Origin: Zootoca vivipara
Taxonomy: Eukaryota
Direction of reading: 5' to 3'
Assembly (NCBI RefSeq): GCF_963506605.1
Contig: NC_083282.1
Location: 5,394,001-5,458,000, forward strand
DNA: 64,000 nt
Shown here: positions 990 through 23,371 of the stretch, piece after piece
Layout: the number at the start of each line of letters is the position of its first letter
Position numbering within the stretch: the first letter of the stretch is position 1
The notes under the pieces: generated by a model
What the model was told of the DNA's origin: nothing
The model's database searches: none
The model's input: the letters and a program-made list of their open reading frames with translations, nothing else
Program-made: the position numbers and the translations under genes

Positions 990-1520
990 GAGTACCTTTC
1001 TCCAACTCAGGAAGTTTTGCCAGCTATGGTCAAAGCAGCCTTGCTTCAGCAATTCATGCGTTGGTAACCTCCTCTGTGGACTACTGCAAAGTATTATGTG
1101 CACTGTTGCTTTTTAAAATGTTCTGGAAATTTGTGTTGGTTCAGAAAGTAGCTAACAGACTGCTGAGACTGGATTGTATGAATCACACCACTCTGGTGAT
1201 CAAGCAGCTCCCCTGGCTCACAGCAAAAAAGAGGGAAAATCAAACACCTTCAATTGGACCTGGAAAAGGCCCTTTGCAGTTGTGACCAGGGTGCTTCATG
1301 GAGTACCTCTCTCCGCATGTACCTGTCTAATTGTTGGGATCTCCTTCAAAGCTCATATCAAATGGCCCTGCCAGGTAATGGTAGGTAGAAGGGCATTTTC
1401 AGTGTGGCTACCCAGCTGTGGAATGCTGGCTCCAGAGTGATGCCCTTTTTTATTCTCCTAGGCCTGTTGATGTCTCATAGCTTTAAGATGCTTTTACCTT
1501 CTGTGACTTGTCTTTTAATG
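990..1520 (+). mobile_element. Old, degraded L2 LINE 3' fragment
   Basis: Degenerate LVTS-VDYC / HTTLVIKQLPWL motifs typical of the L2 ORF2 C-terminus. Confidence 0.5.
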
Positions 1521-2459
1521 CTTCATGTATACTGTACTTCCAAAGCAAGCAAACAGAGCAGGGAAGTGATTTTGAAGTTTCTATTATTCCCCTTTTGGAA
1601 ACTGCAGCTAGCTGTCAAACAAAGCATGTATGTCTCTTTTACACACGGTACTCAAGAAGGAAATGCAGCTAATTAGAGTTGCTGTTAGTTGACATTTTAA
1701 TATCATTTCAGGCTGGGAAGACATCTTTCAGACAGAAGAAATGTGTGGATCCTTGTGCCATGGTTCAAGACTGGGGATGCTAGGAGCCATGGGATCTGAA
1801 ATGAAGAGCAGCTGCTTTATCCTTTTGGCTATGCCTGGTATAGAGTGACACATCGGCTACCTGGCAATGTTCTTACTTCTATCATCCTAGTTATTATCAC
1901 AAACAATAAAGAGTCTTGTGGCCCTTTAATAAGTTCAGTATGGCTCTGCACCTGAATCAGCACATGTAATCAATCTTTGCCACAGGAGCCTTGAGTCTTT
2001 TCCTACACAGCAACCACTGTTATTTTTAAGCTGCCTTTCTACAGGATCCTGCACTTGGGTTGACTTACCAGCAGCAGACACGAGTACAATAAAAAAAGGC
2101 GTAGATACTATACTATATACACACTCTTGACATGAATTGCAGTCCAGGCTCATGCATGTTGACAGGGTTTCACAAGGCCCAGTGGCAGGAAAGTATGCGC
2201 TGTATTGCAGCCTGAAAGTAAAGCACTGAAAGTTAATCTCTACGTAGAAGGGGTTTTTCTAAAATAAAGAGCATTTCATAGCAACTCTTCCTTCCAGTCT
2301 TCAGCTACATACCGTTGCGGCTCTTTGGATTTCGGAACCACAACTGATAAACCAAGGTTTCTTCTTCCTCACAGATTATATATACTGTATGCGTGCATAT
2401 ATATATCCACACACACACACACACACCCCTTTCTATATCTACACCTTCCGCATTCTATA

Positions 2460-3010
2460 AATGGAGGGCAAGGAAGCGGCGCCTGCCTGGGCCCGCTCCG
2501 CCCCCTCTGCCGCCGAGCAGGAAGGGGCGGGCGGCTGCCGGGCGAGCGATGCATTAGCGGCGGCCCTGGAGGCGAGGCAGGGCTTTGCTGCTGAGGCGAG
2601 CGGAGAGGCACCCAAGATGGCCCCTGCTGCAGAGGCGGCCGTGGCAGCAGCAGAGGGCCGGAGGGCGGAAGGGAAGGCCGCGGCCGCCCGGCTCCTGCTG
2701 CTGGTGGAGGACAAGGAGAAGGAGGGCGCGACGGCCACGTCCGTGGCCCGCAGCTGAGAGGAGCTGCCGCCGCCGCCGCCGTGAGGTAAGCGGGAGTCTC
2801 CCCGGTGGGCGGGTGGCGGGGAACAATAGGGCGGAGGCTGCGGCCTTCTCCTCTCTTTCCCTTCGGGCCGGCGGCGCCTCTACCTGGCATTGCGGCTGGT
2901 GTCTCCGTGCGAGACGACCCAGCGGCCTCTTCCACCATTTCCCCTCCACTTCGTCGCCGCCTCTGTAGGCCTCAGGCTTCTGCCGTGCGCTTTCCGCCCC
3001 CGCGGCTTCG
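2460..3010 (+). promoter_or_regulatory. CpG island promoter / first exon region of RC3H1
   Basis: Very GC- and CpG-rich block in an AT-rich background; GC boxes (ggggcggg ~2524), YY1-like CAAGATGGC at 2613-2621, (GCC)n run at 2765-2780. Confidence 0.85.
2560..2785 (+). other. RC3H1: RC3H1 non-coding exon 1 (5' end approximate)
   Basis: Strong donor GAG|GTAAGC at 2785/2786 inside the only promoter-like CpG island upstream of the first coding exon; the TSS cannot be fixed from sequence. Confidence 0.7.
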
Positions 3011-3069
3011 TAAGAGGCCGGGAAATATTCTGGGGGCCGGTGGTTACACGCGGTTTCAACTCATTCCAG

Positions 3070-3070
<1 letters not shown>

Positions 3071-3120
<50 letters not shown>
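3071..3120. repeat. (TG)25 microsatellite
   Basis: Perfect dinucleotide run. Confidence 0.98.
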
Positions 3121-3128
<8 letters not shown>

Positions 3129-4832
3129 CAACCCAGTATTCTTGGCTAGGACGTGCGCGGGGGTGGGTGGAACCCCTTGCCAGGTGTGATCCTCATTGAC
3201 CCTCGGTGGGAATTATCTCTGACAGCTCAGCTTCATGCATGTCTACTCAGAAGCGCCCCCATTAAGTTCAGTGGTACTTACTCCCGAGTAAGTGTGTGTG
3301 TGGATCGCACTCTAAAGTAAACACACAAACAGATAGGATCACATTGCGCACGTCCATACTTCTTAGGGGAGAGCGCTGTCCCACATGTTAAAAGATCACA
3401 CATGCTTTTATTCTGTGCCTCTGTTCCCTAAATGTAGCTTCTATGTTCAGTCCCTGAAGCTTTTTGGGTTCTGACATTGACCTCCCCATGATCTTTTGAA
3501 CATTATCCCTGGCAGTAGTTACTGTACTCAAGGGAGGAAAGAAACGTTAAAAACACAGAACAAAATGTAATTCTAAAAATTCTGGAGGAGTACAAGTACC
3601 CCTACCTTCTGTATATTTATCATGTATGTAACTTTCAGTGTCATGGTTTCAGAGGATTGGACAAAAGTCTGCTTCCCAGGAAATGAAGAATCTGGTTTGG
3701 CTACCTCAAGCAAGCAAACAATCAAGCAAGCAAACCTTTGTGTTCAGGGAGAGAGTTGATATTGAGCAGGAAGTGACATCTGCAAACAGTTCACCAAGAA
3801 GCCATGAAAAATTTCATTGCACAAAATGAAGGCTGTTTAGTTTATTCCTCACCCATCTCTTCATAAACACAACTGTCACACCGATTATTTTGTTAGAATA
3901 AATTGTGATTTATTTATTTTGACTTCTATCAGATAGTGTTTTGGTTATGAGAGAGCATTGTGAATTGTGTTCATGAAAATTAACAGGAATTTGTATTTAC
4001 TTACCTGGTCGCCACAGGTGATCAAGAATGAAGAACACATAGAATTCATTATTTAAGGAATTTTTACTCCACTCTTTAGCTGAAAAGCCTTCTAGAATGG
4101 CTTACAAAGATCAGCATCAATATAGTCCCCGTACCCAGGATTATATTCTAAAATGATATATAAAAATGCATTCAAGTGAGTAAACAGAATGACAGGGCCT
4201 GAGGGACAGGTCAACCTGCCTTTTCTCTGCTAGCTTGCTCAGCTTCCATCATTACTTGGTATTGAACCCCCATCATATTTAGCAAGTATGAAAACATTAT
4301 GTCCTGGTGGAATAAGGACAGATAAGTTGCTCTTTACTTCCTCCACCTGCTCACTCAGGTTCTGTGCTGGCTGTAGGGAGTGAAATCCCTTCTACTCTGA
4401 CCAGCCCATAAACCAAATAAGCTGGCAGAGGAGGATGCTGTGATCAATCCTCCTCTGCCAGACTTCTGCATTTTCCTGCAAGATCTGCAGAAAATAAAGC
4501 TCTTCCCTGCAGGTCCAGTATAGAAAGGGGGGTGCTGGTGGCAAAAGGACAAGGCGATCATTGGCTTTGCTACTAGCCCATCACATTTCTATGCTGAAGG
4601 CACAACAGACAAAGCCCTCGTTTGCACATGTAGCATATAAATCAGTTGGGCTAATAGAAGAGGCAGATAAGTGCTCCATGCCTCTTCTGGCGCCTGCTGC
4701 AGTTCTAGTCTACAGGTTTTTTAGTTCTTTTTGCTAGCAGATAATGTCAACTGTTAAGGCTGTGTGGGTCTTGTACCCAAAGGAAGCATTTGATTGCATG
4801 TGATGAAATGCTTGCTTGTAGGAGATACTGTA

Positions 4833-5076
4833 CTGTCATACCTCGGTTTAAGTACGCTTCAGTTTGAGTACTTTCAATTTAAGTACACTCATACCTCGGT
4901 TTAAGTACGCTTCGGTTTGAGTAATTTCAGTTTAAGTACACTCCCGCGGACCCGTCTGGAACGGATTAATCCACTTTCCATTACTTTCGATGGGAAAGTT
5001 TGCTTCAGGTTAAGTACGCTTCACGTTAAGTACGGACTTCCGGAACCAATTGTGTACTTAAACCAAGGTACCACTG
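4833..5076. mobile_element. Tc1/pogo(Tigger)-type MITE with a 53-bp internal tandem duplication
   Basis: TA-flanked; right TIR ccaaggtaccactg|TA; left-end segment repeated at 4837 and 4890. Confidence 0.75.
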
Positions 5077-7513
5077 TACTATACTAGAAGTGTTGGTCAC
5101 CATACAGAACACTCTCTGGGTCTTGTGTTAGTGCTGGTGTTACCTTAAGTAGGTTCTTTCACCTTGCTGTATGGCAGAGCGTTCCCTGGGTAATATTTAT
5201 ATAAATTGTGATTACATTGCAAAACAGTATGGTTGCTGCAGCTCTACTCATTTTTGTTCATTGATCATGCCAGAAATAACATTCACTACTATCATATTTG
5301 GCAATAATTTTGTCCTGGCTCATGGACAAATTACTGTGATGCTTGCAACCTGCTCTTATACATGTTTACTCAGAATCAAATCCCACTGAATTCAGTAGGA
5401 CCTGCTGTCAATTGCGTGTGCATAAATTGCAGCATTACTGCATAGCAGGGGTGGGCAAGAGGTAGATTGGAAATTTGGTAGATTGGTACAGTTTCCTGAC
5501 TTCCACTTGTTGGAACAAAGACAGTTCCCCTGAATTTAGCTGTTAAGAGACCCTGATGTGTGATAACTAGATGCATAGTTAGATTATACCAATAGGTAAT
5601 TTACTCCTTTCCCAAGCCATCATCTTGCATCTGTGCCTGACTGGTTGGGGCACCTTTGGTTTCCAATTTTTTTTAAAACATAACCCACAAATCTAGTTGC
5701 CCATTCTTGCTATATATTTTACGATGTTTAACTATCCAAATTTGTTGCTATGTCTTCATTATGAAGTAGTAATGTTCATTTACTAAACACTCTTACAGTC
5801 TAAAAATGATATTTTGTTGTTTGTGTATGATAATGGTCACGTCTACTCAACGTGGTGGTTTCTAAACTTATGGTCCTTTGCTTATCACAGTGGTGATCAT
5901 CTTCAGTTTTCAACTCCCCACTTTTTTAAAACTGGAGAAATTAAAATCTCATTACGCTACAGTCCTAGTCTCCTGGATGCTGGGGACTGGTGTTGGGAGT
6001 TAGAATGATGTCTCTTTGCTGATGGGGAAGAATGCCACTGGTGGGTGGGTTCTGCTGTGATAAGACTACCATATTTTACAGTTGCCAGTGAAATGGATTG
6101 TTTTGGGGCAGGGCACCAGAGGCTTTGAATTCACTGGATCCAAAGCCCCACAGATCCCTAAGGAGCCTCTGTCTGGAGCTACTACAGCAGAAAAGGCTGG
6201 CAGAAGCCAACAGGGCTTCTGAGTACCAGTTGCTGGGAATCACAGGTGAGGAAAGTACTTTTGTGCTCAGGTCCTGCTTTTGGGGTTCCCACAGGTATCT
6301 TGCTGGCCACTGTGAGAACAGAATGCTGGACTAGATGGGCATTGGCCTGATACAACAGAAGTACTGTTGGTAGATGGGACTGTTGGGTTTACATCAAATT
6401 CTGCACTCTCCTGAAAGAGCAGGTGGGTACTTGGGGATGCTCCTTGAAGCAGTGCTCCTGTTTGATGTATGTGTGGCAAAGGATGCCTTTTTCCTGCTTC
6501 AGCTTCCTGATGAAAGGTGGACCTTGCTGCAGTCATTTATTCTGTATTGACTTCTAGATTAGATCGCTATAACAAGTTGTATGTTGAATCTGACATTAAA
6601 ATGCATTTTTAAACTTCTGTTAGTGCAGAATGTTGATGGGAGCTTTGATTCTATCACATTGCTTCTCTGTGATTTTTACTGATCTTGCCCTGAAAGCCCT
6701 TAATATATTGGGACATGGGTAGTTTAGGAACTTTCTCTTTGCATATGTCCTTCCCCACATTCTTGGATCTTTAAACCTCAGTAGGTACATCGGTGTCAAC
6801 TGGAGATAGGACATTTTCTATTGTGACTTGTACGCTATGGAGTACCTTGCTGCACCAGGCAGCTGTAGAGTGGTTAGTTGTATAATTTTGCTGGCTGAGT
6901 TTTGTGCTGCTGCAATTTTTGAAACAGTTTGTATACTGTTATTTAATGTCTACTGTGTTTTTTCAGAGACAATTTGCTTTTATTCTGTATTTATTACAGT
7001 CTTCTCAGAAAAATAGGTGGGATAGAAAATGTAAGATGGGGATTATAAACTTACAAAACAGCTGGGGGGGGGAACAGCCCATCCTCAACAGCTGTGTACA
7101 TACCTCATGTCATCCAGTTTTCTTAAAAAATTGTACATTTGTTGAAGGATCAAAACTAAGTTTAAATCTAAATTTTTATTTCATCCTGTTTTCATTTGAA
7201 ATTTTTGTAAAATGATTATTTTTACCTTGCCAAAATCCTTAAAAGCTGAGCCCAGAATTCAGACATTTCAAAACTAAAAATACCAATCTTTTCAGAACTT
7301 CATAGGCTTTAATATGATATGTCACATGATGGACTTACTTTAAATGTTAAAGTTAAGTTACAAAATTTAAAATTGAAAAATGATTAAAAATTGATGATTT
7401 TTAAAAATCTGAAAAATGTATTTATTATTTCATATTTCTAAGAGCTACTTGCAGACTTTCATCTTGGGATCTGAAAGCTGCAGACAGCATTTGATGCATT
7501 TGATGTTCTTTTA

Positions 7514-7868
7514 GGGATGCAGGTGGCCCTGTGGGTTAAACCACAGAGCCTAGGGCTTGACGATCAGAAGGTCGGCGGTTCGAATTCCTGCGACGGGGTG
7601 AGCTCCCATTGCTCGGTCCCAGCTCCTGCCAACCTAGCAGTTCGAAAGCAGTTTGAGCAAGTGCAAGTAGATAAATAGGTACTGCTCCGGTGGGAAGGTA
7701 AACAGCATTTCCGTGTGCTACTCTGGTTCGCCAAAAGTGGCCTAGTCATGCTGGCCACATGACCCGCAAGCTGTACGCCGGCTCCTTCGGCTAGTAAAGC
7801 AAGATGAGTGCCGCAACCCTAGAGTTGTCCGCGACTGGACCTAGCAGTCAGGGGTCCCTTTACCTTTC
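7514..7868 (+). mobile_element. Sauria SINE
   Basis: tRNA-like head with B box ggttcgaattcc, cctttaccttt tail, TSD atgttctttta (7503-7513 / 7870-7880). Confidence 0.9.
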
Positions 7869-8665
7869 TATGTTCTTTTAAGTAGCAAATTAAGTTTAGA
7901 TTGCATTGTGTGTACAGTCATCCCCCCCCCACTTAATGTTCTGGGCCTCTGCGCATATAAGCAAAAATTGCATAAGTGCGGAGAACCCTCTAAATGCCCA
8001 GTTTTTAATTATTGTTAATATTATTTACTAATTAATTAATTTTGTATATGGCCCTATACCCCCAGGTCTCAGGGCAGTTTCTGCTCTCCAGTTCTCTCTC
8101 GCCCTCTCTCTACACACATCTCTTTTGTTCAACTAGAGTTTAAGCTCTGGGGCTGGCTGAAAACTGGAGGACACTCAGAAAAGTGGCTGCTGCTGCGCTA
8201 CCTTGCACATCAGCTGTTAGGCGGGGAGGCTGAGCAGTCTAAACAAAGCCCTCCTTGACATCCTCTTTGGGCTCCAGAGAGGGTCTCTTCACAAGCCATG
8301 AGGACTCTAACTCTCTCCCACCATTTCCTGGTTTGAATTTATTTTTTCTTTCCCAGCACTGTGCATGTATGCAATCACGTGTGAGTCAATCACACATAAA
8401 TGGGAACGGTGCCTGCATTAATTTTTTTATTGGATTTTTTTTTATCTGTCAGTTTATCAGGTTGACTGTTTTCTTTTAAATATTTATATTCCACTTTTCC
8501 AGGCAAAGCCTGTTCAAAGCAGTTTACAACAATAAGGAGTTACAACTGTAAAAAAATACTCCAGGAATAAAGATAAAATGCATTCAGAAACTTCCATACC
8601 ATCTGATTAGCTCTCAGACTGGCATCCTTTATTAGTGCTGAATTGAAGTAGATTATACAGTAATA

Positions 8666-8801
8666 CAGGCATCTTCAAACTTAGGCCCTCCAGATGTTTT
8701 GGACTACAATTCCCATCTTCCCCGATCACTGGTCCTGTTAGCTTGGGATCATGGGAGTTGTAGGCCAAAACATCTGGAAGGCTGCAGTTTGGGGATGCCT
8801 G
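8666..8801. mobile_element. hAT-type palindromic MITE
   Basis: caggcatc...gatgcctg TIRs; same family as 11317 and 56869. Confidence 0.85.
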
Positions 8802-8951
8802 GTAGTACATTAAATTATCTAGATAGGTGTTAAATGGATCAATCTTGTGTAATCCTACTCAGAATAGAGCCTCACTGAGATAAAGGAGGCTTACTCCCAA
8901 GTAACTGTATGGGACTGTAGCCTCAGGCACTTTCATGTGAATAAGTCCTAT

Positions 8952-9150
8952 TCATAGAATCATAGACCCAAGACTCATCTAGTCCAACCCCCTGCAATGC
9001 AGCTAAAGCACCCATGTCAGATGACCATCCAACCTCCAAGGAAGGAGAGTCCACAACCTTTTGTGGGAGTCTGTTCCACGGCCGAACAGCATTTACAGTC
9101 AGAATTTCCCCCCTGAATGTTTAGTTGGAATCTCCTTGTAACTTGAAGCC
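8952..9150 (-). mobile_element. CR1 LINE 3' fragment
   Basis: catagaatcatag tail (reverse of the ATTCTATG-type CR1 tail) plus degenerate ESP/AVEQ region. Confidence 0.65.
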
Positions 9151-9279
9151 ACAGGAAGTGGGACTTCTTATTAGAAATGTTTAGGACTGTGCTCTTGAGC
9201 AGCCTTCTAATTTGCATTTGCCTTTCCACCAGGAGTTTGCATTTAGAGCCAAATTAACAAATGATATAAGTGTGTAGAC

Positions 9280-9623
9280 CACCACTGAGCCTTTTGGACT
9301 TGCTGATCGGAAGGTTGGCAGATCGAATCTGCGTGATGGAATGAGCCCCCGTTGCCCTGTGCCAGCTCCTGCCAATCTAGCAGTTCGAAAGCACACTAGT
9401 GCAAGTAGATAAATAGGTGGCGGGAAGGTAAACGGTGTTTCCATGCACTCTGGTTTCTGTCACGGTGTGCCGTTGCACCAGAAGCGGTTTAGTCCTGCTG
9501 GCCACATGACCCGGAAAGCTGTCTGTGGACAAACGCTGGCTCCTTTGGCCTGAAAGCAAGATGGGCGCTGCAATCCCATAGTTTCCTTTGACTGGACTTA
9601 ACCGTCCAGGGCTCCTTTACCTT
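9280..9623 (+). mobile_element. Sauria SINE (5' truncated)
   Basis: Body similar to the 7514 and 12709 copies; cctttaccttt tail; TSD tataagtgtg. Confidence 0.85.
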
Positions 9624-11316
9624 TATAAGTGTGCAAGAGACAAGGTGTGGACTGAATTCATCTTAGTTTGGCCCTCATTTATTATAACCACATTTTTTAA
9701 TATACTACTTGGTTTTTCAATGTCTTAGTTAAGGCGGTAAGTTCACAAATTTATTTATTTATTACCCACCCTTCACCCTAACACCCCAGCATTAAAACAC
9801 AATATTAAAAGCAATCTGCAGCCATAAAAATAAGATGTGTCCCAAAAATATACATTGCAGGTGTCAAAAGCAAGAGTCAGGTGTGTTTTCAGCATTCTCC
9901 AAAAGCTGTATGATGAAGGTGCCAGACACACTTATTGAGAAAATTTGTACTGTATAGTCTGGGCTTCTAAACTGAGAATTTCTGTTGTATTAGCCTTCTT
10001 GATGTTTAAAAATGTGTAGAATAAAATATGTAACATTTTTCAAGTATTTTAAAGAGGAAGGTGGTGAGCCATATATACATTAATCCTTCATCAGCCTTAG
10101 TCTTCTGAGGAGTAACTGGATCAATCTTTCCTATCATGCCAGGGATTGGAGGCATCCAGTAAAAGTGAAAGAGGTTATTCCTGCTCCTCTCTAATTTTAA
10201 AGACAAATGCAAACTTGTGAGCGGTGTGAATCTCACATCACAAGTTATTTGTATAAGACATTAAATCTTGGGGTGGGAGATGCAGTGTCTCTCTTTGCAC
10301 CTAGCATGATGTAAGAGACCCCTCCTTTTCTGCTGTGTGGAGAATTTGTGGGAAGTATATATTACTTTGCTCTGGGCCTCTAGAAGCAAATGGTGGCCAG
10401 AAAGAAAATTTGCCTTTACAATTGGCAACTGCTTTTGTGGATTCCTGATCTGATACAATTGAGTTATCTCTTACATTTGTTCTGTTATCAGGTACTGTAC
10501 TAGTATTAATTATGAAATGAGGCAGACTGCTGAATGAAAAGCCCGCAAAATGCTGTGATAAAAATGAAAATGTTGAACTTCCAGTTGACTTCTAAGGATG
10601 TAGGAGTACTGGCTTCAGAAAATTAAGATGACTGCAAAATAGTCTGAATTTTATTTTTTAATTTCTTAAGAGAATCAGTTTTTAATATTTGACACAAGGA
10701 AAAAATCAAGCTGAAATGTAATCTGACACGCAGATGTTAAGTGATAAACTACATTACCATTTCTACCAGAGATTTATTTATTTGCCAACACAGTAAATCC
10801 ACTGTGTTCTGCAGTCACTATTGGAATATGTAACTAAATCTGGACATTCTATAATCCACTGCAATGCGATTTGAACTGGTTTGGGTTTTTTTTTTAGTGT
10901 AACTTTTAATTGAAAAATTTCCCCAGGCTTATTCAGATGCAATGCTAAATCATAGTGGGGAACTTCCAGCCCACAGATGTCAGGGCCTGGGCAGAGAAGG
11001 AATGGTGGAGGCTGCCTCCCCATCCTGACCCTTCCAGGGAGGAGGAAGAGGAAGACAGTATAGACAGGGGAGTGAGGGAGATCGCAGCTCAGAGGCAGAT
11101 GAGGGGGAAAGTTGGGAAATAATGGGAGAGGAGGAGGAGAAAGCAGCTGATGGACACGGTGTCTTTAGAAAGCATTCCAGACCCCCCTCTCCCAGAACCC
11201 GGCAAGCCTGAAAGTAGGAGAGCAAAGAGCTCAAAGACAGAGGGGACGTAGCAGCACCCATGGAGGAGAAGAATGAGGAAGTGGGAGAGATGGGGGTGGT
11301 GGAGATTCACTCAGGA

Positions 11317-11452
11317 CAGGCATCCCCAAACTGTGGCCCTCCAGATGTTTTGGCCTACAACTCCCATGATCCCTAGCTAACAGGACCAGTGGTCGGGGAA
11401 GATGGGAATTGTAGTCCAAAACATCTGGAGGGCCGAAGTTTGGGGATGCCTG
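11317..11452. mobile_element. hAT-type MITE
   Basis: TIR caggcatccccaaact; perfect 8-bp TSD actcagga on both sides. Confidence 0.92.
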
Positions 11453-12708
11453 ACTCAGGACAATGCCATTATCCAAGAGGCTGGGTTCTATAGCCTTGCT
11501 CTGGAAATCTATATAAATAAAAAGGTAAAATGCCAGGTTGTGTGTGCTCACTCTCAGCTTACGCCGAAAGTGCTTGACCGAATGAGTTGAAATTTTGACA
11601 CAACGTTGCAATCCAATACAGGAGTGTTTGTATAAACTTAGATTGTACAGATGTCACACCTATCACAGGTAAAAACATGCTTTTTTTGGATTTTTTTTTT
11701 GAAAAACCAGAAAGACAGGAACAGGAGAGGTTGCAAAACATCGCCCTGTAGCGGCGACACCTCTGGTACTGCAGCTAGAAAAGCTTCCCTCTCCAAAGCA
11801 GTTTGCAGACTGGGCTGAGTGGAGGTGCGGGCTTGCCTGGGTGGGGGGTGGGTGGAGGATGGGATTGGGATAGGTCATGGGTCGGGATGGGGTGGGGTGG
11901 GGAGAGTCACAGGGATGAGCCACAGCAACGCTAGTACTGAATAAAAATAGGACGATAAGAAGCATTCCCTTGTCTCTGTACATTCCTGGGCAACTAGCCG
12001 GGAGTTGCTGGCAGCAGTCTGACAAAAGGCCTCATTATTGCTGTGAGGCCTCTGAAATTGACCCACCAGGCCATTTTGGGCAGATCATTCTGATCGTCCT
12101 CATGTCTGATGTGGTATGATTACAGGTGATTGATGGGTTCATCCCAGTCCCATCCTATTGCTGAAAGTGTAGGGTTTGTCTCTTGGATCAGCCCTTCTGA
12201 CTGGAAGTGATTCGTCACCCCTACTTTAGCATTACTACAAGAGCATGCCTAGGTTAGCCTTGGGCTCACGTGCTCCCTCCTTCCTCCTGCAGTGTGACCA
12301 TGAGGAAGAGTTTGGAAACTTTTCCGTCTGTTTTTGAGTAACCGCAACTTGTTGTGTTGCCCAAACCTGGACAGGCAAACTGGTTAACCTTAACTGCTTT
12401 ATGGAACAATCCAACTTCACACCATAATTCCAAAATCAGGTTTGTCTAAGCAAACCATAGTTAAGTTTAAATATTCAGCTGTAATTCTAGTATTCAGTGT
12501 TAGTATCCAGATGTAATTGTAAACTGTGATTAATCTTAAATGGAAGCTTAAAATTGTTAAGGTTTTTGTTGTCAGCTTGTTGTTTATGCTGGCTCTTAAA
12601 CATTGTCTTACTCAGAATTTTACAGTGTTTGCAGACTGCCCTGAAAAATATGCAAGAAGGCCAGATTTGGGATATAAATTAATAAATGAATTAAGGGCAG
12701 CATATGAA

Positions 12709-13073
12709 GGGACCCAGGTGGCGCTGTGGGTTAATCCACAGAGTCTAGGGCTTGCTGATGAGAAGGTCGGCGGTTCGAATCCCTGCAACGGGGTGATCTC
12801 CCGTTGCTTGGTCCCAGCTCCTGCCCACCTAGCAGTTCGAAAGCACATCAAAGTGCAAGTAGATAAATAGGTACTGCTCCGGCGGGAAGGTAAACGGCGT
12901 TTCCGTGCGCTGCTCTGGTTCGCCAGAAGCAGCTTTGTCATGCTGGCCACATGACCCGGAAGCTGTCTGCGGACAAACGCCGGCTCCCTCGGCCTGTAGA
13001 GCGAGATGAGCGCCGCAACCCCAGAGTTGGACACGACTGGACCTGATGGTCAGGGGCCCCTTTACCTTTTACC
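12709..13073 (+). mobile_element. Sauria SINE, full length
   Basis: gggacccaggtggcgctgtgg head, B box ggttcgaatccc, (ACCTTT)-type tail, TSD tatgaa. Confidence 0.92.
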
Positions 13074-14835
13074 TATGAATCATAGATCATATGAATGTAG
13101 AGTTGGAAGGGACCCCAGAGGTCATATAGTCTGCAGTGCGGAAACTCATTTGGGAGGATTATGACTGATTGTGTGGCATTATGATTAGTGCCACAATTTT
13201 TTGGGGGCTGTCTGTGTGATTAATGATTCTGGAACATTGACAAAGTGGCTGTCATGCAGATGTGTTTTCAGTAGATTGCATTCCAAAATCCACAGTTGAG
13301 CTATGTCTTTATTAGAGCCAACCCAAATATCACAAAATAATGAAGTAGCTTTTGATTCCTTCATTATTCACCATCTGGTTGGATGTTAAGCAAGCAGGCA
13401 TGGGGAGAGAAGCAAGCTCACTTGAAGGCACAGCCTTTGTGGCTTCAACTTCAAGGCAGCTTGTTTTTCTCCCCACTCTTTGTTTGCTTAGCATCTATCC
13501 TGAAGAACTCAAAAGCTTGCTAGATGTTTTTGTCATACTTTGACCGGTCTTATGTTGTCTAACTGATGGCCTTTCATTTTAATTGATTATAAGTGATGAT
13601 TTTATCATAAGAACTGGCCCTTGGTGGTGAGAGTTTATTCTTTACTTGTACTGTCGTCTGCATGGCAGTCTGTTGTCTCTAGACTACCATGGTGGTATTG
13701 TCATTGTGATTTTTTGGTAGCCTTAAGATTCTAGACCAGTTTTCTCCAACCTGGTGTCCTCCAAACATTTTGGAATAAAATGTCCACAATCTCTAACCAC
13801 AGGTCACGTTGGCTGGGGCTGATAGGAGTTGTAGTTTAAAAGGAGACTAATAGAAATGTATTGATTTCATTGGGTCTACTCTGAGAATGTTAGATATACT
13901 CACTAAGAAAACAATGTGGATTAAGAATAGCAAAGCAAACTAAGTGATTTGATTGAGAATCCTAGGCCAAATCTTCCTACTCGCTTGCTAAATATTTGGC
14001 CTTTTCCCAACTTCATCCAAGCTACATAGTTTAAAAAAGAATTTCTAAGTTTCCTAGAATGTCCTAACATCTAACATTTTTGGATAAAGTTATTAATGAC
14101 CTAATTGGTGCTATGGGCCAGGGTGCTCTTGTCTTCATCTGGAAAGTCAGACAGGAACAAAGGAGGAAATGAGTCACTCTGCAAACATCTTTTGGACCAG
14201 ATATTTTCCATCTTTTATGTTAATTGCATTCCTTGCATAGGTGAGCCCACCTAGGTTGATAATGGCTGTCCATATTCTAACCAGGGAAATCATAATTGGA
14301 CTGTTGTGTACCCTAGTCTCTCTGATACATTCAAACCCAAGTTTTCCAGGTCCAAATTTACCACTGTTCACTTCTCATGAAATTCTGGCCTATGCACAGT
14401 GACCATTCCAGTGAGATTCTTCTGCGAACCTCATTGTAAGTGTTTCATCGCTTTTCCAGGGCAGAAGTAGAAATGTGTCATGTTCTCTGTCCAGAATTTC
14501 TTATCTTTCATTTTCAAAAATGTTGTGCATTGCCTACAGAACAGCTATAGGACTTAGAAAGTTACATTAGCTTTTGGAATAGGGGTAAGGGAATGGCTGA
14601 GAGAATATTAGTCATCTTTAATATAATATATTCAAAGAGGTTATAGTAAGAAGACATCTTAGTGGTATATATAAACAGCCTTCTTCATTCTAAGTAAGTT
14701 CAAATGACAACAAGTTGTGCCAGTATCCTGCCACAACACGGTTAGTAGAGCTGTTACTATCTCCCATTTCAGTACAGGATGAATGGATCACAGTTAAGTC
14801 ATTATGAGGCGCTTAAGTTGGGCTTTGTTCTTGTC

Positions 14836-14892
14836 AGCCAATCACTGGGCTTGCACTTGGTTGCTTATTTGAATAGCCAGAACTATATAAGA
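14836..14892 (+). promoter_or_regulatory. Histone H2B-type core promoter: CCAAT, octamer-like H2B box, TATA
   Basis: gCCAATca (CCAAT 14838-14842), CTTATTTGAATA 14864-14875 (octamer ATTTGCAT with one mismatch), TATATAA 14884-14890; ATG 76 nt after the TATA end. Confidence 0.7.
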
Positions 14893-14965
14893 TTATTTCA
14901 GGGGACAGGGTATGAGCATTTTCAGGCAGGCAGGGAATTTGGCTGTGTGAACTTAAAGTCAAACA

Positions 14966-15361
14966 ATGGCTGCTACCACCCGGAGAACCAGGAAAAAAAG
15001 CCAGGTGCATCAAAGGCAACGGTACAGGACACAGTATAGGCAGAGAAGGCCCAGAGGGGGGAAGATACTTGGGAGGCATGCAAAACATGGCCATGGAAAG
15101 AAGCTCCCTGACAGAAGGCCATCCAAGAAAGCACAGAAACTGCGGCTTGACAGTGTTCGAATGACCAACGAAGCCCAGAACATCTTGCATTTCTGTGTGC
15201 ATGACCTCTACAAGAAGGTGTCCTTGGCTGCTGAGCGCTTGAGGAAAAAGAAGCGCCATGTCTCTATTACTGTCTCAGATGTAAGAAATGCCCTGAAAAA
15301 GATCATGCCAAGGAAGTATGACAGAAAGTCTGTATCCTCCATTCCCTGCAAATGCCGTTAG
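14966..15361 (+). CDS. Divergent histone H2B-like protein (131 aa), intronless, nested in RC3H1 intron 1
   Basis: Kozak aaacaATGG; 41/131 residues K+R; ungapped by-eye alignment of aa 66-124 to H2B 54-112 (A..I....V.D........A.RL........IT......A.....P.......VS); own promoter and polyA signal. Confidence 0.8.
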   Translation: MAATTRRTRKKSQVHQRQRYRTQYRQRRPRGGKILGRHAKHGHGKKLPDRRPSKKAQKLRLDSVRMTNEAQNILHFCVHDLYKKVSLAAERLRKKKRHVSITVSDVRNALKKIMPRKYDRKSVSSIPCKCR

Positions 15362-15742
15362 AGACATCTCTCCCCTTTCCTATGACAGGCTTAGAAATGG
15401 AAGAAAGAAGGGAAAGGGGGGAAAGCACTAGCCTGAGAGAAAATCCAGTACTTTGCCTGCCTGAAAAAAAACACCACCTTCAAATTTCCAAGCAATCCTG
15501 TAACCTACCTTTTTATTACTGGATCAACATCCCCACTAATAATGAACTCGAGGAAGGGCAGAATCTGGCATTCTGAAGATCATGACAAGATGATTATCAT
15601 ATTGCCCTTATGCTGAATCAGGGAGATGGATTATTGGGTGTTGGAAGAAAATGACTTGTCAAGTTGTGGAATATCAAGGACTCTAATCAGCAACTGTGGA
15701 GCATGTGAGGTGTTCCCTAAAGGGAGACATATTCCCTTTTTC

Positions 15743-15748
15743 AATAAA
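15743..15748 (+). terminator. Polyadenylation signal of the nested H2B-like gene
   Basis: AATAAA ~380 nt after the stop, followed by GU/U-rich sequence (ctgtgtcttt...ctggttctt, ~15776-15800). Confidence 0.55.
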
Positions 15749-17374
15749 ACAGGATCTGTGCAGGAGAACTCATCACTGTGTCTTTAATATTCTGGTTCTT
15801 CAGAACTATACATTTATTAGGGGAAGGCTAGCTTATGTAGTTTATGGAGGCTGTGTTTTGCATACTCTTTAGAACTTGTAATAATGTTTGACTACGATTT
15901 TTTTTAAAATAAAAATAAGTGATATCAGAATTAGATAGAAATGGAAAGTATGTAGGATGCAACACATTGGGATTGTATCACTGAATATTGCTGTAAATGT
16001 GTCTTGAATTGCATTGCCTTTAAAATTGTGGAAAAGGAATTTTAAACAGGACATTATGTTAGGGGCTTTATCTGAGAATATGTCCATATTGGTCCCAAAG
16101 ATTACCTGATAAAGGGCTTTTTTGTGTACTCACTTTTTGCCATGTATGTTCAGTATCGTAGCAGCTGTTACTTTAAAATGGTGATTAGGTAGTGAATTGC
16201 ACTGGTTCTTTTCCTAATGTTTCTTCCTTAGTTGGAAAGATGTTGCAAATAGGCATTTTATACAATTTATATAATAACCCTGAAAGGTTAACAATTCAAG
16301 TGCTTACTGTATTTCCCAAAATGCCTATTTGCAACATCAAGTCAAATGTTTGGGGTACCTATCCCCAGAAGTCACCATAGGACATATGCATATAATATCC
16401 CTGATGTAAGGATATAATTTCTCTCTTTTCCTCTGGTGCAATAAAATTTTTCTATGGATTTGCAGCTGAGGCAACTGCTAGTTTGCCCCAAATTTTGTGG
16501 TAATCAAGGCGCTTCAGAAGCAAAAGTAAGGTCCAGTTTTTTCAATGTTCAAACTTCTCTACCACTATCATGTGGCATATTTTACTTGATCAGAAGAGAG
16601 TCTTTGTTTCACTGTTCTGTATAGCTGTGGAAATTCTGTGTAACAGAAACTCGAAACGTTTCATGTATGTTGCAACTGAGTCATACTTTTATAAAGGTGT
16701 AGTTGTGATTTTAACTTTGAGAGATGTTTGAATTGTGAAAGCTTTGCAGCGCTGTTAGAATGAGGATTTTGAAGTGCAGGAGACAAATTTTTATTTGTCT
16801 GTTATTATGATATATTTTGAAATGTCAGTTGAACAAAAAATTGCAGACCTGCAGTGAATTGGTTTGTGGTTCTTTTTGTGAAAGTGTTAACTACATTTGT
16901 TAATGGGGAAATGCCAGTGGTGTGTTTTGTACTTTTAAAAAATAAAACCTTTATGGTAACCTATGATGTGTACCAGGAAAAAATATATTCTGCAACCTGT
17001 ATAATTTTTGATAATTACTGCATTTACATGGCTGTTTTTGCATGATTTTTAAACTTCTGGAGCACCTCAGTGGGAGTTGGGGCACGGTGCTTTAGTGGTT
17101 CTGCTCCTATTCCAGGGCCAATTCCAGAAAGCAGTTAGGGAAGACTGCTTTTCAGTCCCATGGGAGTTGTCGTGTGGTGTCCTGCATGGTTCCATCTTCT
17201 TCTGCCATGCTGTGAGGCCTCTGAGCTGTCATCTAATGTGGAGTGAAGTGCTATCAATATGCAGGCAACACCCAGCCCTGTTCCATCTGAATCAGAAGAG
17301 ATGGCTGAGGTGTTCGATCAGTGCTTGGAGGTGGTGACTGACTGAATTTGAGCAGTGTTAGAAATTCAGATATA

Positions 17375-18332
17375 CAGTCATGGAAAAAAATAAAGTGCAC
17401 CCTCTTTTAATTCTGTGGACATAATAACAATCATCTGTCCCTAAGCGGGTCTTAAAATTAGGTAAATGCAACCTCAGATGAACAATGCATGACATATTAC
17501 ATTGTGTTATGATTTATTTAACAGAAATAAAGCAAAAATGGAGAAGCTATATGTACACCTTATGATTCAGCAGCTTGTAGAACCACCTTTATCAGCAGTA
17601 GCTCTATGTGAGCATTGCACGGTCTGACCTTGAGGTGAATTTGCTGGGACGTCCACTCCTGGGAAGATTGGCACCTGTCTTGAATGTTTTCCACTTTTGA
17701 ATCATCTTTCTCACTGTAGAATGATGGACATAAAATTGGTTGGAGATGGCCTTAGAACCCTCCCCAGTTACGTGGGCAGCAACAATTGCTTCTCAGAGCA
17801 CTGCTGATGTCTTTCCTCCTTGGCATTGTGTTAAAACATACCTGAATGCTTTAGACCAGGCATAGGCAACCTTGGCTCTCCAGATGTTTTGGAACTACAA
17901 CTCCCATGATCCCTAGCTAACAGGGCCAGTGGTCAGGAATCATGGGAGTTGTAGTTCCAAAACATCTGGAGAGCCAATGTTACCTATGCCTGCTTTAGAC
18001 CAGCAATCTGCTGAAACTTCAACTTTTATAGAGGAGGTTAGACTTGCTGATGATCAATTAAGCAAGGGCATTTGATTAGCAGCACCCGTCTGCTACTTAG
18101 CCCCTTAATTTCTATGGAAGCAGTAAGGGTGTACTTAGTTTTTCACACATGGCTTCCCCATTTTTGCTTTATTTTTGTAAGTCATGACACGGTGTAACAT
18201 GCCATGTGTTGTTGTTCATCTGAGGTTGTATTTACCCAATTTTAAGACTTGCTAATGAACAGATAATTGTTATTATGTCCTCATAAGTAAAACCACAGAA
18301 TTCAAAGAGGGTGCACTTTTTTCCCATGACTG
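17375..18332 (-). mobile_element. Internally deleted Tc1 DNA transposon with ~200-bp TIRs
   Basis: TA|cagtcatgg...ccatgactg ends and long inverted arms. The minus strand from 17826 encodes a degenerate Tc1 paired-domain start (MPRRKDIS...HHSTVRKMIQKWKTFKTGANLPRSGRPSKF). Confidence 0.85.
17857..17992. mobile_element. hAT-type MITE nested in the Tc1 element
   Basis: caggcatagg...cctatgcctg TIRs; 8-bp TSD ctttagac. Confidence 0.9.
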
Positions 18333-18949
18333 CATAAGCTAGGGGCAAATGGCTTCTTAAACCAAGGTTATAGCTGCCAAAACAGAATGTCTGTTTGCCA
18401 TTTTGGGGCAAAATGACTCTGAAGTCTTATTTTTCAGTTGATGAACTGACTGTGATTGATTTTCAGTTAAACACCTGGCTACTTCAGATGGCCGACCTTG
18501 AACTAGATTAAGAACTTTGAGAACTTAAAGCAAAAAAGTAATTTTATCCAGGGACAACCCGCCTGTTCCAGCCTCTTTTTCTTAACACAGACCATTCATA
18601 AAGTAAGAATATTCTTCAAAACTGTGAGCAGGACAGTGGGGTGAGGGAAGTGAAAGCAAACAAACTACATCAATTAACTATAACATCATTCACTGCTTCT
18701 GCTGCACAGAAAAAGCCTTCTGGTTTCTAAAATTCATTCTGATTGTGCAGATAAAATATAATGGATAGAATTCTTCAGGATGTTGTATTAGTGTGTGAAA
18801 GCAGTCAAGATTCAATCAATGATCCCCAGGCATGCAGCTCCAGGTGGTGGAGATGTCAGGCTCCATCCTGGCACCCAGGCATTTTCACTTGGTTGCAAGT
18901 GGCCAATAGTCTGGTGCAAAATGCAGCTGGCGCCCAGCTTAATTTCAAA

Positions 18950-19512
18950 CACTGGGTGTGAGCCAATAAACTAAAGCTGACTTGGCCACTGTACTCTGGT
19001 GACTTGGGGCTGCCCTTGAAGACAACTAAGAAACTTTAACTGGTCTAACATGCAGTGGCCAAATTATTGGCTATATGCCATATAGACATCACATGACCAC
19101 TGTTTTAAAAAGCTGCACAAGTGGCTGGTTTCTTTTGTGGCCAAATTCAAGCCCTATATGACTCAAGCCCCAAATACCCGAAAGACCGCTTCCTTCCCTA
19201 CAGAATCAGTTATTAAGATCAACAGTGGGGCCCTCTTGGTTGTTCCATTGCTCACAGAATCTCGGGGTAGCAGTGTGTTGGGAGAGGGCATTATTGGTGA
19301 CAGCCCCTAAGTTGTGGAACTCGCTCCCCACAGAGTGTATTGGGCTTATTCATTATTTAGCTTTTGGTGAATGCCCCTCTTTACTCTGGCTTTTGACACC
19401 TGAGTTGTATATTATGACCCACCTAAAATTGTAAGTTTTTAAAAAGCTGCTTTTAACATTGTGTTTTAATTGTTGTAACCCACCCTGGGACATGCTGGTG
19501 AAGGATGGGTAA
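18950..19512 (+). mobile_element. Old L2 LINE 3' fragment
   Basis: Degenerate L2 motifs (TAPKLWNSLP) and L2-type 3' end. Confidence 0.55.
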
Positions 19513-19514
19513 TT

Positions 19515-20000
19515 AATCATAGAGTTGGAAGAGACCACAAGGGCCATCCAGTCCAACCCCCTGCCAAGCAGGAAACACCATCAAAGCATTCTTGACACAT
19601 GGCTGTCAAGCCTCTGCTTAGAGACCTCCAAAGAAGGAGACTCCACCACACTCCTTGGCAGCAAATTCCACTGTCGAACAGTTCTTACTGTCAGGAAGTT
19701 CTTCCTAAAGTTTAGGTGGAATCTTCTTTCTTGAAGTTTGAATCCATTGCTCCATGTCAGCTTCTCTGGAGAAACAAAAACAACCTTTCTCCCTCCTCTA
19801 TATGACATCCTTTTATATATTTGAACATGGCTGTCATATCACCCCTTAACCTTCTCTTCTCCAGGCTAAACGTACCCAGCTCCCTAAGCTGTTCCTCATA
19901 AGGCATTGTCTCCAGGCCTTTGACCATTTTGGTTGCCCTCCTCTGGACACGTTCCAGCTTGTCAGTATCCTTCTTGAACTGTGGTGCCCAGAACTGGACA
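19515..20000 (-). mobile_element. CR1 LINE 3' fragment
   Basis: [25 protein letters not shown]...EKRRLRGDM and TVRQWNLLP motifs. Confidence 0.92.
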
Positions 20001-21231
20001 AATAAATAATGATTATTATTTATTCCTGCTCTGCTAATCATATAGGCAGTGACAATTTGCATCCTGACCACTGAAGTTCCCTGCAAGTTTCAGAGATTTA
20101 CCACACTTTGTCTCTTATCAGCAGCAAGGACTGGAAATGTGTCTTCTTATAGAAGGTGGATTGTGAATCAGGATGCTGAAAACCATGACCAATGCATTCC
20201 CTGTATTTTACACACAATTAATGAATATGCACACATGACAGATGCATTTGTTTTGATCTGTCTAGTTTAAACTGAGCCCTAGGATCTGGTTGGAGGATTA
20301 TTTACTTGAGGTATCCTTAAGGCTGTGCACTTGCAGATATTGGCTGGTGGAAATATAAGAGCCTGTCATCATAAATCAAAAGAGCTGTATGATTTTTGTG
20401 TGCAAAAGAGGTGTATTTAAAAACAAAACAAAAAACTGTTCCTCTCACTAAATGATTTATTGCATAGTTCAACTTTGCCAGGAAGCTTATGAAAGTGTCT
20501 TGAGAAACGCACCCATTACCTCTTGATTTTATGGTTACTTCCTGTGAAGCACAAGAAACTAGCAACCTTCTGAACCATGGACTTTCTGAACATAGAGATG
20601 TAGCTTACCATCTCCACACTGGCATTTCAGCAATGAAAGCATTTCAAGGTACTGGTATAGCATAGCAGCTAAGAGTACAGACTATTAAGTCAGGTAGTCC
20701 CTGACTTCAGGATCATTCTCATTGACTACATACTCATTTGGTTGACCATATACAAGTCTCTATTTTCCTCCCATCATGTGTGTATAATAAAACTGGCTAA
20801 GTTTATGAGATTGTATCTATAGTTGAATATGCATTTTATGCTAAACAAGGGGTGGCCAATATAGTGTCCTGCAGGTGTTGCCAGCCCCAGACAACATGAT
20901 CAGTGGCAACAACTAGAGGGCACCATGTTGGCTTCCCCTGTGCTAAATCATGGTTTAGTGCAGTGAGCACAAGCTGCAGTGAGCCACAGACACTTCTCCC
21001 CTTTCCCCTCCCATGTTGTCTGGAGGAGTTCAGAAACTTGCTTTCTGTCTCACTTAAACTTAGCTGGTATTTTTGTCAGAACTGGGGATTGTGATTTAAT
21101 GTTAACCATGGTCAGTTTCAAAATAAGCCAACTTTAAACCATAGGTAATAAAGCAGTTTTGTTTAAACAAAGATTTAACTTAAGCATGATGTACGAATGT
21201 AGCTACTGTGTCTCAAGTTATTATATATCTA

Positions 21232-21477
21232 CAGTGGTACCTCTACTTACGAATTTAATTGCGTTCCGAACGCACATCTGTAAGTCGGAAAAAAATGTAA
21301 GTTGAATCCCATAGGAATGCATTGGGAGAAAAAATTCGTAAGGCAAAGCAACCCTATCTAAAAATTCGTAAGTAAACTGCATCCAAGATGGCTGGCGGAG
21401 CTCCGTTCGTAAGTAGAACATAGCTGCCAAGTTATCCCTTTCATAAGTAGAGTTATTCGTAAGTAGAGGTACCACTG
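21232..21477. mobile_element. Tc1/pogo(Tigger)-type MITE
   Basis: TA|cagtggtacctctacttacgaat ... attcgtaagtagaggtaccactg|TA; same family as 55521 in opposite orientation. Confidence 0.9.
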
Positions 21478-22086
21478 TATATTTAGTTATCTGTCTATCT
21501 ATTATCTATCTATCTATCTATCATCTATCTATTCTGTCTGCTTTCTCTGAAAGCAGTGTTTGAAAAGTAGTCTGTGATTCTTTTCTTTTATGAGGTGCAC
21601 AGAGATATCATGAGAAAACAGTTTCTTTAGCCTTGATTACTAGACCTCGTCCCAACTACCGGTAGTTTATCAAGGTCCAGTTGTTGTTAGGTTTTGAAAA
21701 CAAGGATAATCACTTCTGAATATAAGAATGCCTCTGTGGGCAGTCATGTTAAAAGGTGCATAGTCTTCAGGGGGGTCTTTCTTAAGAGAGTATACATTTT
21801 TTTAACATTTAGTAACTGTATAGTAAGTAAATGAAAAGTAAATAAAAAATGCTGTTGTACTAAATGTATTTGCTGTGTAACATTAACTAATAATTAGTGC
21901 TGCATGAACACTTAAGTTGCTCTGTAAGCACAGCCAAAGCTTGGAATTGGGGACTGAGTAAAAATGCCATATCTTGAGAAATGTCATATTTTGAGTATCA
22001 CAGCCATTGCCATCATCCAACTCATAGCCAAGCTGCCTAGGAACTTGGTGCTTCCTTGCCCCTCTCTGACCAGAAGGAACAAAATA

Positions 22087-22372
22087 CAGTGGTGCCTCGC
22101 TTAACGAATGCCCTGCTTAACGAAATTTCCGCTTAACGAAAGGATTTTTCGAGCGGAGGTTGCCTCGCTAGACGAATGCGTTTTACGAAAAATTCGTCTA
22201 GCGAATCGCGGTTTCCCATAGGAATGCATTGAAATTCAATTAATGCGTTCCTATGGGCAAAAAATAAAATAAAATAAAATTCAGTGCATTCCTATGGGAT
22301 TCGCTAGACGAATTTTTCGCTATAAGAAAAGAGCCGTGGAACGAATTAATTTCGTCTAGCGAGGCACCACTG
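22087..22372. mobile_element. Tc1/pogo(Tigger)-type MITE
   Basis: TA|cagtggtgcctcgct ... agcgaggcaccactg|TA. Confidence 0.9.
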
Positions 22373-22397
22373 TATATAAAACTGTGCAAAACAAATA

Positions 22398-23164
22398 CTG
22401 TATTTTTCGCTCCATAGCACGCACCTGACCATAGGACGCACCTAGTTTTTAGAGGAGGAAAACAAGGGGGGGGGGAAATATTTTGCTTTCTTGAATTGAC
22501 CTAGGCATAGCAGTCAACTCCTAGAGACCTAGGTGCCTTTGCCCCCCAATTAAATATTTGAGACAGCTTCTTTTGCAAAGGGGGAAAGCTCCATTTTTTT
22601 TAGGATCAGCTCAAAGTTGTGCAGCTTTTTTTGCAAATGGGAAAAGCCCCGTTTTTAGGGGGGGGGTCAGCTCAGAGTTGTGCATCTTTTTTGCAAAGGG
22701 GGAAAGCTCCATTTTTTTAAGGATCAGCTCAAAGTTGCCGAGTTTCCTTGCAAAGGGAATAAAATCCTGTTTTTGTGGGGTTCAACTCACAGTTCTGCAG
22801 CTTCTATAGGAAAGTAAATGGACCCATTTCTACAGTTTCCTTACAGATAATCTAATTAGCCAGTCACATGTCTCCCTCTGCAGACAACAATTGAGGCCTA
22901 GGCAAGCCCTTGGGAAGGGAGCTAGCTCTCTTATCTTCCTCCCCGATCTCTTGCAATCAGCTGCTGAGCCGGTTCCTTTCAGCTCATTCCCTCTTGTTAG
23001 CCTTTAGCTCTTTCTTTCTTTTTCTTTTTTTAAAAAGCACGATCTGCCTTTAGCCCCTGGGCAATTCGGCTCCAGGGACCACACTTTCGCTCCATAAGAT
23101 GCACAGACAGTTCCTCTTCTGTTTTAGGAGGAAAAAAGTCCATCTTATGGAACTAAAAATACGG
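22398..23164. mobile_element. pogo-like non-autonomous DNA transposon with internal ~60-bp tandem repeats
   Basis: TA|ctgtattttt ... aaaaatacgg|TA; about 4 copies of cagct..ttttgcaaagggggaaagc..ggatcagctca at 22560-22800. Confidence 0.7.
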
Positions 23165-23232
23165 TATATGCAATGTTGTATAACTTAACAGAATCTAGTG
23201 CTACCTCAGCACAGTTTCAAATTTATTGATAC

Positions 23233-23371
23233 TGGTGGTGGACTCTCATTCCTCGGAAGTTTTTAAACAGAGGTTGGATGGCCGTCTGTCATGGATGCTT
23301 TAGCTGAGATTTCTGCATTGGGGGGAGTTGGACTAGATGCCCCTTGGGCCCCTTCCAACTCTAGGATTCTA
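23233..23371 (+). mobile_element. CR1 3' end fragment
   Basis: ggactagatg...ccttccaactctaggattcta tail. Confidence 0.6.

Follow-up and report, generated by a model that had tools for sequence, protein, structure and literature searches.

A conserved histone H2B derivative of Zootoca vivipara belongs to a clade of reptile and bird proteins

An intronless open reading frame (ORF) at 14966..15361 on the forward strand of the window (the whole 64-kb stretch of Zootoca vivipara DNA that was analyzed) encodes a divergent H2B variant of 131 aa, identified by homology to H2B and here termed paralogue A. Paralogue A is a real, conserved H2B derivative rather than a chance ORF, it groups in a single clade with proteins of turtles, an alligator, and birds, and it is almost certainly a functional member of this distinct reptile-and-bird H2B clade. 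An earlier note on this DNA had described a histone-protamine hybrid; the basic H2B derivative in that description stands, the protamine hybrid does not, and the family across reptiles and birds had been overlooked.

Identity, conservation, and composition

Searches of the Z. vivipara genome at the protein and DNA levels found paralogue A as a single copy, and an exact look-up of its sequence in the protein collection searched returned nothing. A first search yielded eight relatives from lacertids, snakes, agamids, and geckos, comprising seven squamate orthologues with an intact ORF and 66–96% identity and one partial gecko model; among named proteins, the closest is one of Podarcis lilfordi (96%). 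All counts of A rows given below cover the window protein and these eight orthologues. Over H2B positions 54–103, each of the eight orthologues is identical to the window protein at 46–50 of the 50 residues, whereas paralogue A matches canonical H2B at only 11 of the same 50, and paralogue B, introduced below, at 26. In the N-terminal part, 29–61 of 55–65 aligned positions are identical among orthologues. Because the core is nearly invariant from geckos to snakes, we conclude that paralogue A is under strong selection, and because this core is so far removed from the canonical one, selection appears to act on a new surface. A decaying H2B pseudogene, the odd features of which would be drift, could account for the missing Pfam match and for the lack of ORF reads in three RNA libraries whose tissue is unstated; it is effectively refuted by the conservation pattern, as the ORF is intact, the core is retained, and promoter conservation extends to a paralogue and to a gecko orthologue.

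Paralogue A alone gave no Histone match in Pfam and matches H2B only over residues 65–124, without gaps, and among 11 family proteins scanned, including the window protein, one passed the Pfam Histone cut-off. A family profile built from 18 relatives, in contrast, matched H2B chains in PDB with an e value of about 4e-12, and the best 60 of its 178 PDB matches were all H2B. The nearest ESM Atlas cluster, "putative Histone H2B-like" with 98 members and without Pfam assignment, is a lead only, and the database names of family members ("histone H2B-like" or "uncharacterized") are all automatic.

Our recount of the composition agrees with the earlier note: 22 Arg, 19 Lys, and 7 acidic residues (D+E), 10 Arg among the first 30 residues, and the C-terminus IPCKCR. 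The net charge is +34 compared with +18 in canonical H2B, ranges from +33 to +36 across A orthologues and from +33 to +41 across A and B, and lies near +35 in A, B, and C and likewise in the family members from turtles, alligator, and birds. Like protamines and transition proteins, paralogue A is thus very basic, enriched in Arg, and tipped with Cys. PRM1, however, is reported to contain 50–70% Arg, to evolve rapidly, and to be derived, it is thought, from H1 (PMC8812575); paralogue A has 17% Arg (15–19% across A rows), no Arg run longer than two, a folded and nearly invariant core, and an H2B origin, and it does not qualify as a P1-type protamine, a short protein with clustered Arg that lacks folded domains. 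Profiles of protamine P1 and TP1 had no matches in this genome and likewise none in the control genomes, so that their silence here is uninformative. It is improbable that paralogue A itself persists as an end-point basic protein of sperm nuclei, or that it is a precursor whose Arg-rich tail is released as a protamine-like peptide, with terminal Cys residues cross-linking sperm chromatin. That reading draws on the rise in Arg/(Arg+Lys) from canonical H2B (0.25–0.29) through A (about 0.5) to B (0.62–0.83), on the conserved terminal Cys of A, and on Arg contents of up to 31% with runs of five in B and of 28% in one kiwi family member; the low Arg content and extreme constraint on the folded core of A speak against it, as does the lack of the Cys tip in B, the Arg-richest paralogue (21–31%).

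Kept and lost parts of the histone fold

We mapped paralogue A onto a canonical H2B of the same genome (L008), with which it lines up gap-free from α2 to αC, the numbering being shifted by 12. Residues 1–53 (14966..15124, forward strand, as are the following segments) form an Arg/Lys-rich N-terminal tail that includes a basic stretch in place of the first half of helix α1; its sequence varies among orthologues and its charge is constant (residues 1–56 of A contain 13 R, 8 K, and 1 acidic residue), and pLDDT is about 44–55 in two AlphaFold models. Residues 54–67 (15125..15166) comprise a one-turn α1 remnant, modeled as a helix at 54–57 with low confidence in both models, and loop L1, in which L59, at the position of V48, is Leu or Met in all nine A rows. 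The nearly invariant α2, L2, and α3 occupy residues 68–113 (15167..15304) according to alignment and models, with helices predicted at 68–96 and 103–113 (pLDDT 78–96). Residues 114–131 (15305..15361) are a degenerate αC; pLDDT drops to 43–52 over residues 121–131, and αC is absent from both models.

The loss of the hydrophobic α1 stretch YSIYVY that the earlier note had reported is borne out, the equivalent being DRRPSK without gaps or PDRRPS with a one-residue L1 insertion seen in relatives, and in either register none of the 4–5 hydrophobic residues is left. Of 13 α1 positions, the window protein has a large hydrophobic residue at 1 compared with 8 in canonical H2B (A rows, 1–3; C, T1, and birds, 3–5; T2/D group, 5–7), and fully amphipathic α1 and αC helices are missing. 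At the other end, H2B E105 and E113 indeed correspond to K117 and S125, and the last residue, R131, aligns with T119, so that the protein stops one position short of the K120 ubiquitination site. All nine A rows share the replacements E71 to K, E76 to A, Y83 to K, L100 to K/R, E105 to K, and E113 to S/T/V and the absence of K120; T96 has changed in A together with E71, E76, Y83, and L100. Paralogues B and C retain E76 and have lost E71 and Y83. A terminal Cys-x-Cys is found in seven of the nine A rows and at least one terminal Cys in all nine, while none of the B rows has Cys-x-Cys; the third Cys of A (C77) occupies the buried F65 position. H2B residues L80, R79, and D68 are retained, and the α2–L2 surface has become basic (RLRKKKR). 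At 17 positions of α2, L2, and α3 that we take, on the usual description of the fold rather than from coordinates, to face H2A, all nine A rows carry hydrophobic residues, Ala, Cys, or Pro.

The earlier note also spoke of a lost acidic patch. According to the available description, the patch consists of six H2A residues and two H2B residues (PMC10657182); H2B's share is gone, and judging by the alignment the patch would be reduced rather than removed unless the partner is a variant as well. The proposal in that note that nucleosomes containing this protein would be unstable has gained from the alignment, since E71, E76, and Y83 are replaced in all nine rows too. Mutants of H2B E71 are reported to increase dimer exchange (PMC10657182), and the single substitution E76K to distort the H4 interface and perturb the stacking of Y83 on H4 Y88; without DNA, H2A–H2B carrying E76K fails to bind H3–H4 and octamer formation is blocked, whereas on DNA it is still incorporated into nucleosomes, albeit unstable ones (PMC6212774).

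These data bear on the possibility that paralogue A is a true but labile nucleosomal variant, which would join H2A, H3, and H4 on DNA and form open, factor-poor nucleosomes in germ cells. The assembly of E76K nucleosomes on DNA, the retention of L80, R79, D68, and the H2A-facing positions, and the modeled α1 remnant are compatible with it, but E71, E76, Y83, T96, and L100 have changed together, most of α1 and αC is gone, and only 11 of the 50 core residues match canonical H2B; we regard it as unlikely, though worth keeping in view. Structural searches agree with a histone fold in general: Foldseek with the A model had no matches at an e value up to 0.001, its top-ranked rows being H2B, and VIA-align recovered histone folds including H2B with Z of 5–7 (best 7.1, none at 8 or more), tied within about 1. 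The model would thus support a generic histone fold without singling out one.

Among known proteins, canonical H2B shares with paralogue A the α2–L2–α3 register, the H2A-facing hydrophobic residues, the intronless gene, and a CCAAT-octamer-TATA promoter; unlike canonical replication-coupled H2B, paralogue A is encoded outside the histone clusters with AATAAA instead of a stem-loop, and it differs in its core, in the degenerate α1 and αC, and in the loss of E71, E76, Y83, E105, E113, and K120. Mammalian H2B.N, compared by its description, similarly has a divergent fold and has lost αC and H2B's acidic-patch residues (PMC8857922), but its gene contains an intron and originated in mammals, and its expression is described as oocyte-biased, whereas A is intronless and α1 is eroded as well. 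The intron within the histone-fold region reported for H2B.K and H2B.N is absent from the single-exon ORF of A; mammals are reported to carry intronless retrocopies of both genes (PMC8857922), and the missing intron alone leaves a remote kinship possible. H2B.L (subH2B), also described in mammals, resembles A in its intronless, poly(A)-type gene and altered H4-contact and L2 residues; by description it is set apart by positive selection, in contrast to the almost invariant core of A, and it is reported from mammals only and not from the syntenic site in chicken (PMC8857922). H2B.W of mammals is likewise divergent with an Arg-enriched tail but keeps α1, αC, and most H4 contacts. The short H2As (H2A.B, H2A.L.2), reported to destabilize nucleosomes (PMC7226823), share the Arg-rich tail, the loss of acidic-patch residues, and a truncated C-terminus and may be functional analogues; unlike A, they are of the H2A class, eutherian, and have a complete histone fold.

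Promoter, genomic setting, and the reptile–bird family

The promoter core of paralogue A (14838..14889, forward strand) is of the H2B type, with a CCAAT box at 14838, an octamer-like element ATTTGAAT at 14867, and a TATA box at 14884; the octamer has a role in H2B promoters. This pattern occurs once in the 64-kb window and in none of 100 shuffles. Its spacing (29/17) is identical in A, B, C, and the clustered gene E1, compared with 30–31/16 in the canonical H2B genes of this genome, and the remaining five clustered family genes fit the pattern only in part. The promoter and 5′ leader (14783..14933, forward strand) are 71% identical to those of paralogue B over about 150 bases (e value 3e-9), and therefore the gene moved by DNA duplication together with its promoter; homology between A and B upstream of 14790 or 3′ of the AATAAA was not above that of shuffles. 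The gecko orthologue carries a mis-annotated N-terminal extension that matches the translated window promoter (51%, e value 7e-10), so the promoter is conserved in the gecko too. The N-terminal extension of P0007 (and, by eye, those of P0025 and P0028) was rejected as protein and attributed to translated promoter. A 7-base word at 14801–14807, upstream of the CCAAT box, is common to the promoters of A, B, D1, and D2, is reversed in C, and is absent from the four canonical H2B promoters checked; it is possibly a germline element.

An AATAAA at 15743..15748 (forward strand), homologous to that of paralogue B, is the likely poly(A) signal. The search for a histone stem-loop after the stop of A gave no Histone3 match; a stem-loop is found in none of the nine family genes compared with all four canonical controls checked in the same genome, and AATAAA is present in all eight family genes having sufficient downstream DNA. 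Paralogue A likely sits in intron 1 (2786..26034) of a Roquin gene on the same strand, because a donor site at a CpG island lies at 2785/2786, although the splice itself is one that we infer; the first coding exon of Roquin, encoding the RING finger, starts at 26035, downstream of A. Judging by its N-terminal sequence, the host is presumably RC3H1. A Roquin intron contains LINE reverse-transcriptase ORF fragments at 43754–45472, presumably RTE/BovB-like, and CR1- and L2-like fragments lie at about 19757, 24577, 32197, and 41000. A GC-rich 138-base tandem repeat (52350–52849, 3.6 copies, 89% matches) has frames open on both strands.

The Z. vivipara genome encodes nine intact family genes. Besides A, these are paralogue B on C12 (L002:1483-1857, reverse strand), with 27% Arg (21–31% in orthologues) and Arg runs of five; paralogue C on C7 at 67.16 Mb (L003:1393-1827, forward strand), with a perfect octamer in its promoter and a Cys-x-x-Cys just after α3 in five of six rows; and a tandem array of six divergent genes of the H2B family, all intact (two of D-type and four of E-type), on C2 at 18.054–18.074 Mb (L029:4839-L031:4017). 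B and C each have squamate orthologues of their own, and the E-type proteins end in Thr-Pro repeats. The C2 cluster lies between genes for a flavin amine oxidase and a zinc-finger protein, the latter presumably ZNF692-like, and is likely the ancestral cluster.

When 1.84 billion representatives were searched by profile, 29 proteins scored at e values up to 1e-10. Ten proteins looked up from the best 36 matches include five turtle clusters and three bird clusters (Apteryx twice, Aix), and a further search added family members from Alligator, Varanus, Anolis, and more turtles; the results suggest that gene clusters exist in turtles and kiwi as well. In these word-limited searches, in which many matches bore no species name, no mammal, amphibian, or fish was named among the family matches. 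In a tree of 56 rows and 72 columns, 48 family rows fall on one side of a branch with 100/99 support, the other side holding canonical, invertebrate, and plant sequences and three H2B.W-like rows (one checked as W-like), which thus group with canonical H2B and outside the clade of A; A, B, and C each form a starred clade. A reduced tree (four long rows and one duplicate removed, 51 columns) retained the separation of 43 family rows at 100/99 and joined A and B at 96/79, a grouping that is not starred. Both trees rest on short alignments with a long stem branch and leave out H2B.L, H2B.N, and H2B.K. In the literature whose full text was searched, most subscription papers lying outside it, the family is undescribed, and in a survey of vertebrate H2B variants in 18 mammals and chicken only H2B.K is reported at a syntenic site in chicken (PMC8857922).

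A possible role in male germline chromatin

The RNA comparison covered 4 of 23 listed runs, including three raw RNA libraries of Z. vivipara for which no tissue is given, sampled at about 7.5 million records each, or about 6 in 100 of each library; in these three samples a few reads were scattered over the intron and none fell on the ORF. A further run, presumably of RNA, gave a contig that covers 14810–15056 at a depth of 3.3; as its start precedes the TATA box, host pre-mRNA or DNA could be its source. A clue to germline transcription comes from a 5′-truncated, broken, retrocopy-like copy of B on C1 at 111.256 Mb (L007:about 1067-1604, reverse strand). It begins at about codon 90, keeps 81% identity along the 3′ UTR, and ends 15 bases past the AATAAA, with no homology beyond that end (116 of 300 shuffles reach the same score); a poly(A) tail or target-site duplication was looked for and none is visible. 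The fragment reads as an old 5′-truncated retrocopy, which is suggestive, though not proof, of a polyadenylated germline mRNA of B, and the same argument has reportedly been applied to H2B.K and H2B.N (PMC8857922). The clue concerns B rather than A and does not distinguish sperm from egg; it bears on A because the two promoters are shared.

A role of paralogue A in spermiogenesis, which the earlier note had also proposed, may be inferred. Our leading interpretation, to which we give a little less than an even chance, is that paralogue A is a male-germline H2B variant that pairs with an H2A-type partner, stays off H3–H4, and remodels spermatid chromatin. Its mRNA would be replication-independent, polyadenylated, and present in spermatids, and the protein would pair in a histone handshake with H2A or with a divergent form of it, giving a dimer that contacts DNA through the Arg/Lys tail and the basic RLRKKKR surface, not through H4. 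Docking on H3–H4 would be lost, because E71, E76, and Y83 are replaced and E76K alone blocks H3–H4 binding without DNA, and the dimer would displace canonical H2A–H2B. Incorporation would do away with the site of K120 ubiquitination and with the acidic-patch residues that H2B supplies, and the result would be a transition-protein-like intermediate, preceding protamine loading, in which spermatid chromatin is loosened and repacked. Germline expression is reported for each of the five H2B variants that mammals broadly retain (PMC8857922), and TH2B–H2A.L.2 is described as opening nucleosomes for transition proteins (PMC7226823); by analogy, paralogue A would act like the TH2B–H2A.L.2 step or like a transition protein. 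Counting against this mechanism, H2B E76K still enters nucleosomes on DNA and B and C keep E76, the mammalian precedents as described diverge (H2B.L is subacrosomal, H2B.N and H2B.K oocyte-biased), and the nearly invariant core fits a dedicated non-histone partner equally well as H2A.

An intronless H2A derivative encoded on C10 of the same genome (L060:1444-1884, forward strand), 54% identical to canonical H2A, has an acidic N-terminus, a weakened acidic patch, and an AATAAA 65 bases after the stop; it resembles H2A.R and is a candidate partner for A. Two further H2A variants of the poly(A) type (71–72%) are encoded on C4 (L058:1501-1911 and L059:1501-1920, forward strand), one of which ends in SQEF and is presumably H2A.X-F-like, and three H2A genes on C2 at 17.66–17.67 Mb (L053–L055) encode a long Ala/Lys-rich C-terminal extension, with a stem-loop seen for L053.

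Paralogue A could instead work outside the nucleosome, as a histone-fold protein committed to one particular partner, be it a sister paralogue, a divergent H2A, or some other protein with a histone fold; a structural component of the perinuclear or subacrosomal region, as described for H2B.L, would be an example. The paralogue-specific invariant cores of A and B suggest specific partners, the fold matches spread over many histone folds, and the H2A derivative on C10 is at hand, but the strongly positive charge maintained throughout the family points to nucleic acid binding, and we consider this reading rather improbable. An oocyte, early-embryo, or somatic variant apart from spermiogenesis has similarly poor prospects, somewhat below these: H2B.N, which also lacks αC, and H2B.K are described as oocyte-biased and retrocopies can arise from either germline, but the gain of Arg and loss of acidic-patch residues resemble the testis short H2As as described, and the lack of ORF reads argues against broad high expression in the three samples.

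Squamates, turtles, an alligator, and birds thus share a multigene H2B clade that is old and separate. Most of its members fall under the Pfam Histone cut-off, and its living paralogues show a graded loss of histone-fold parts. This gradation may represent stages from H2B toward a protamine, with α1 intact in the clustered genes of turtles and lizard, eroded in C and birds, and gone in A and B, and with Arg rising to 31%; of the paralogues, B is the strongest candidate for such a protamine-like end point. That reptiles and birds made their own transition- or protamine-like sperm proteins from H2B, a second histone-to-protamine route beside that from H1, is conceivable, although we doubt it more than we believe it. 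If testis expression holds, these genes would be concrete candidates for spermatid chromatin remodeling in non-mammalian amniotes, and the family forms a natural series in which to ask how far a histone fold can be dismantled under continued strong selection.
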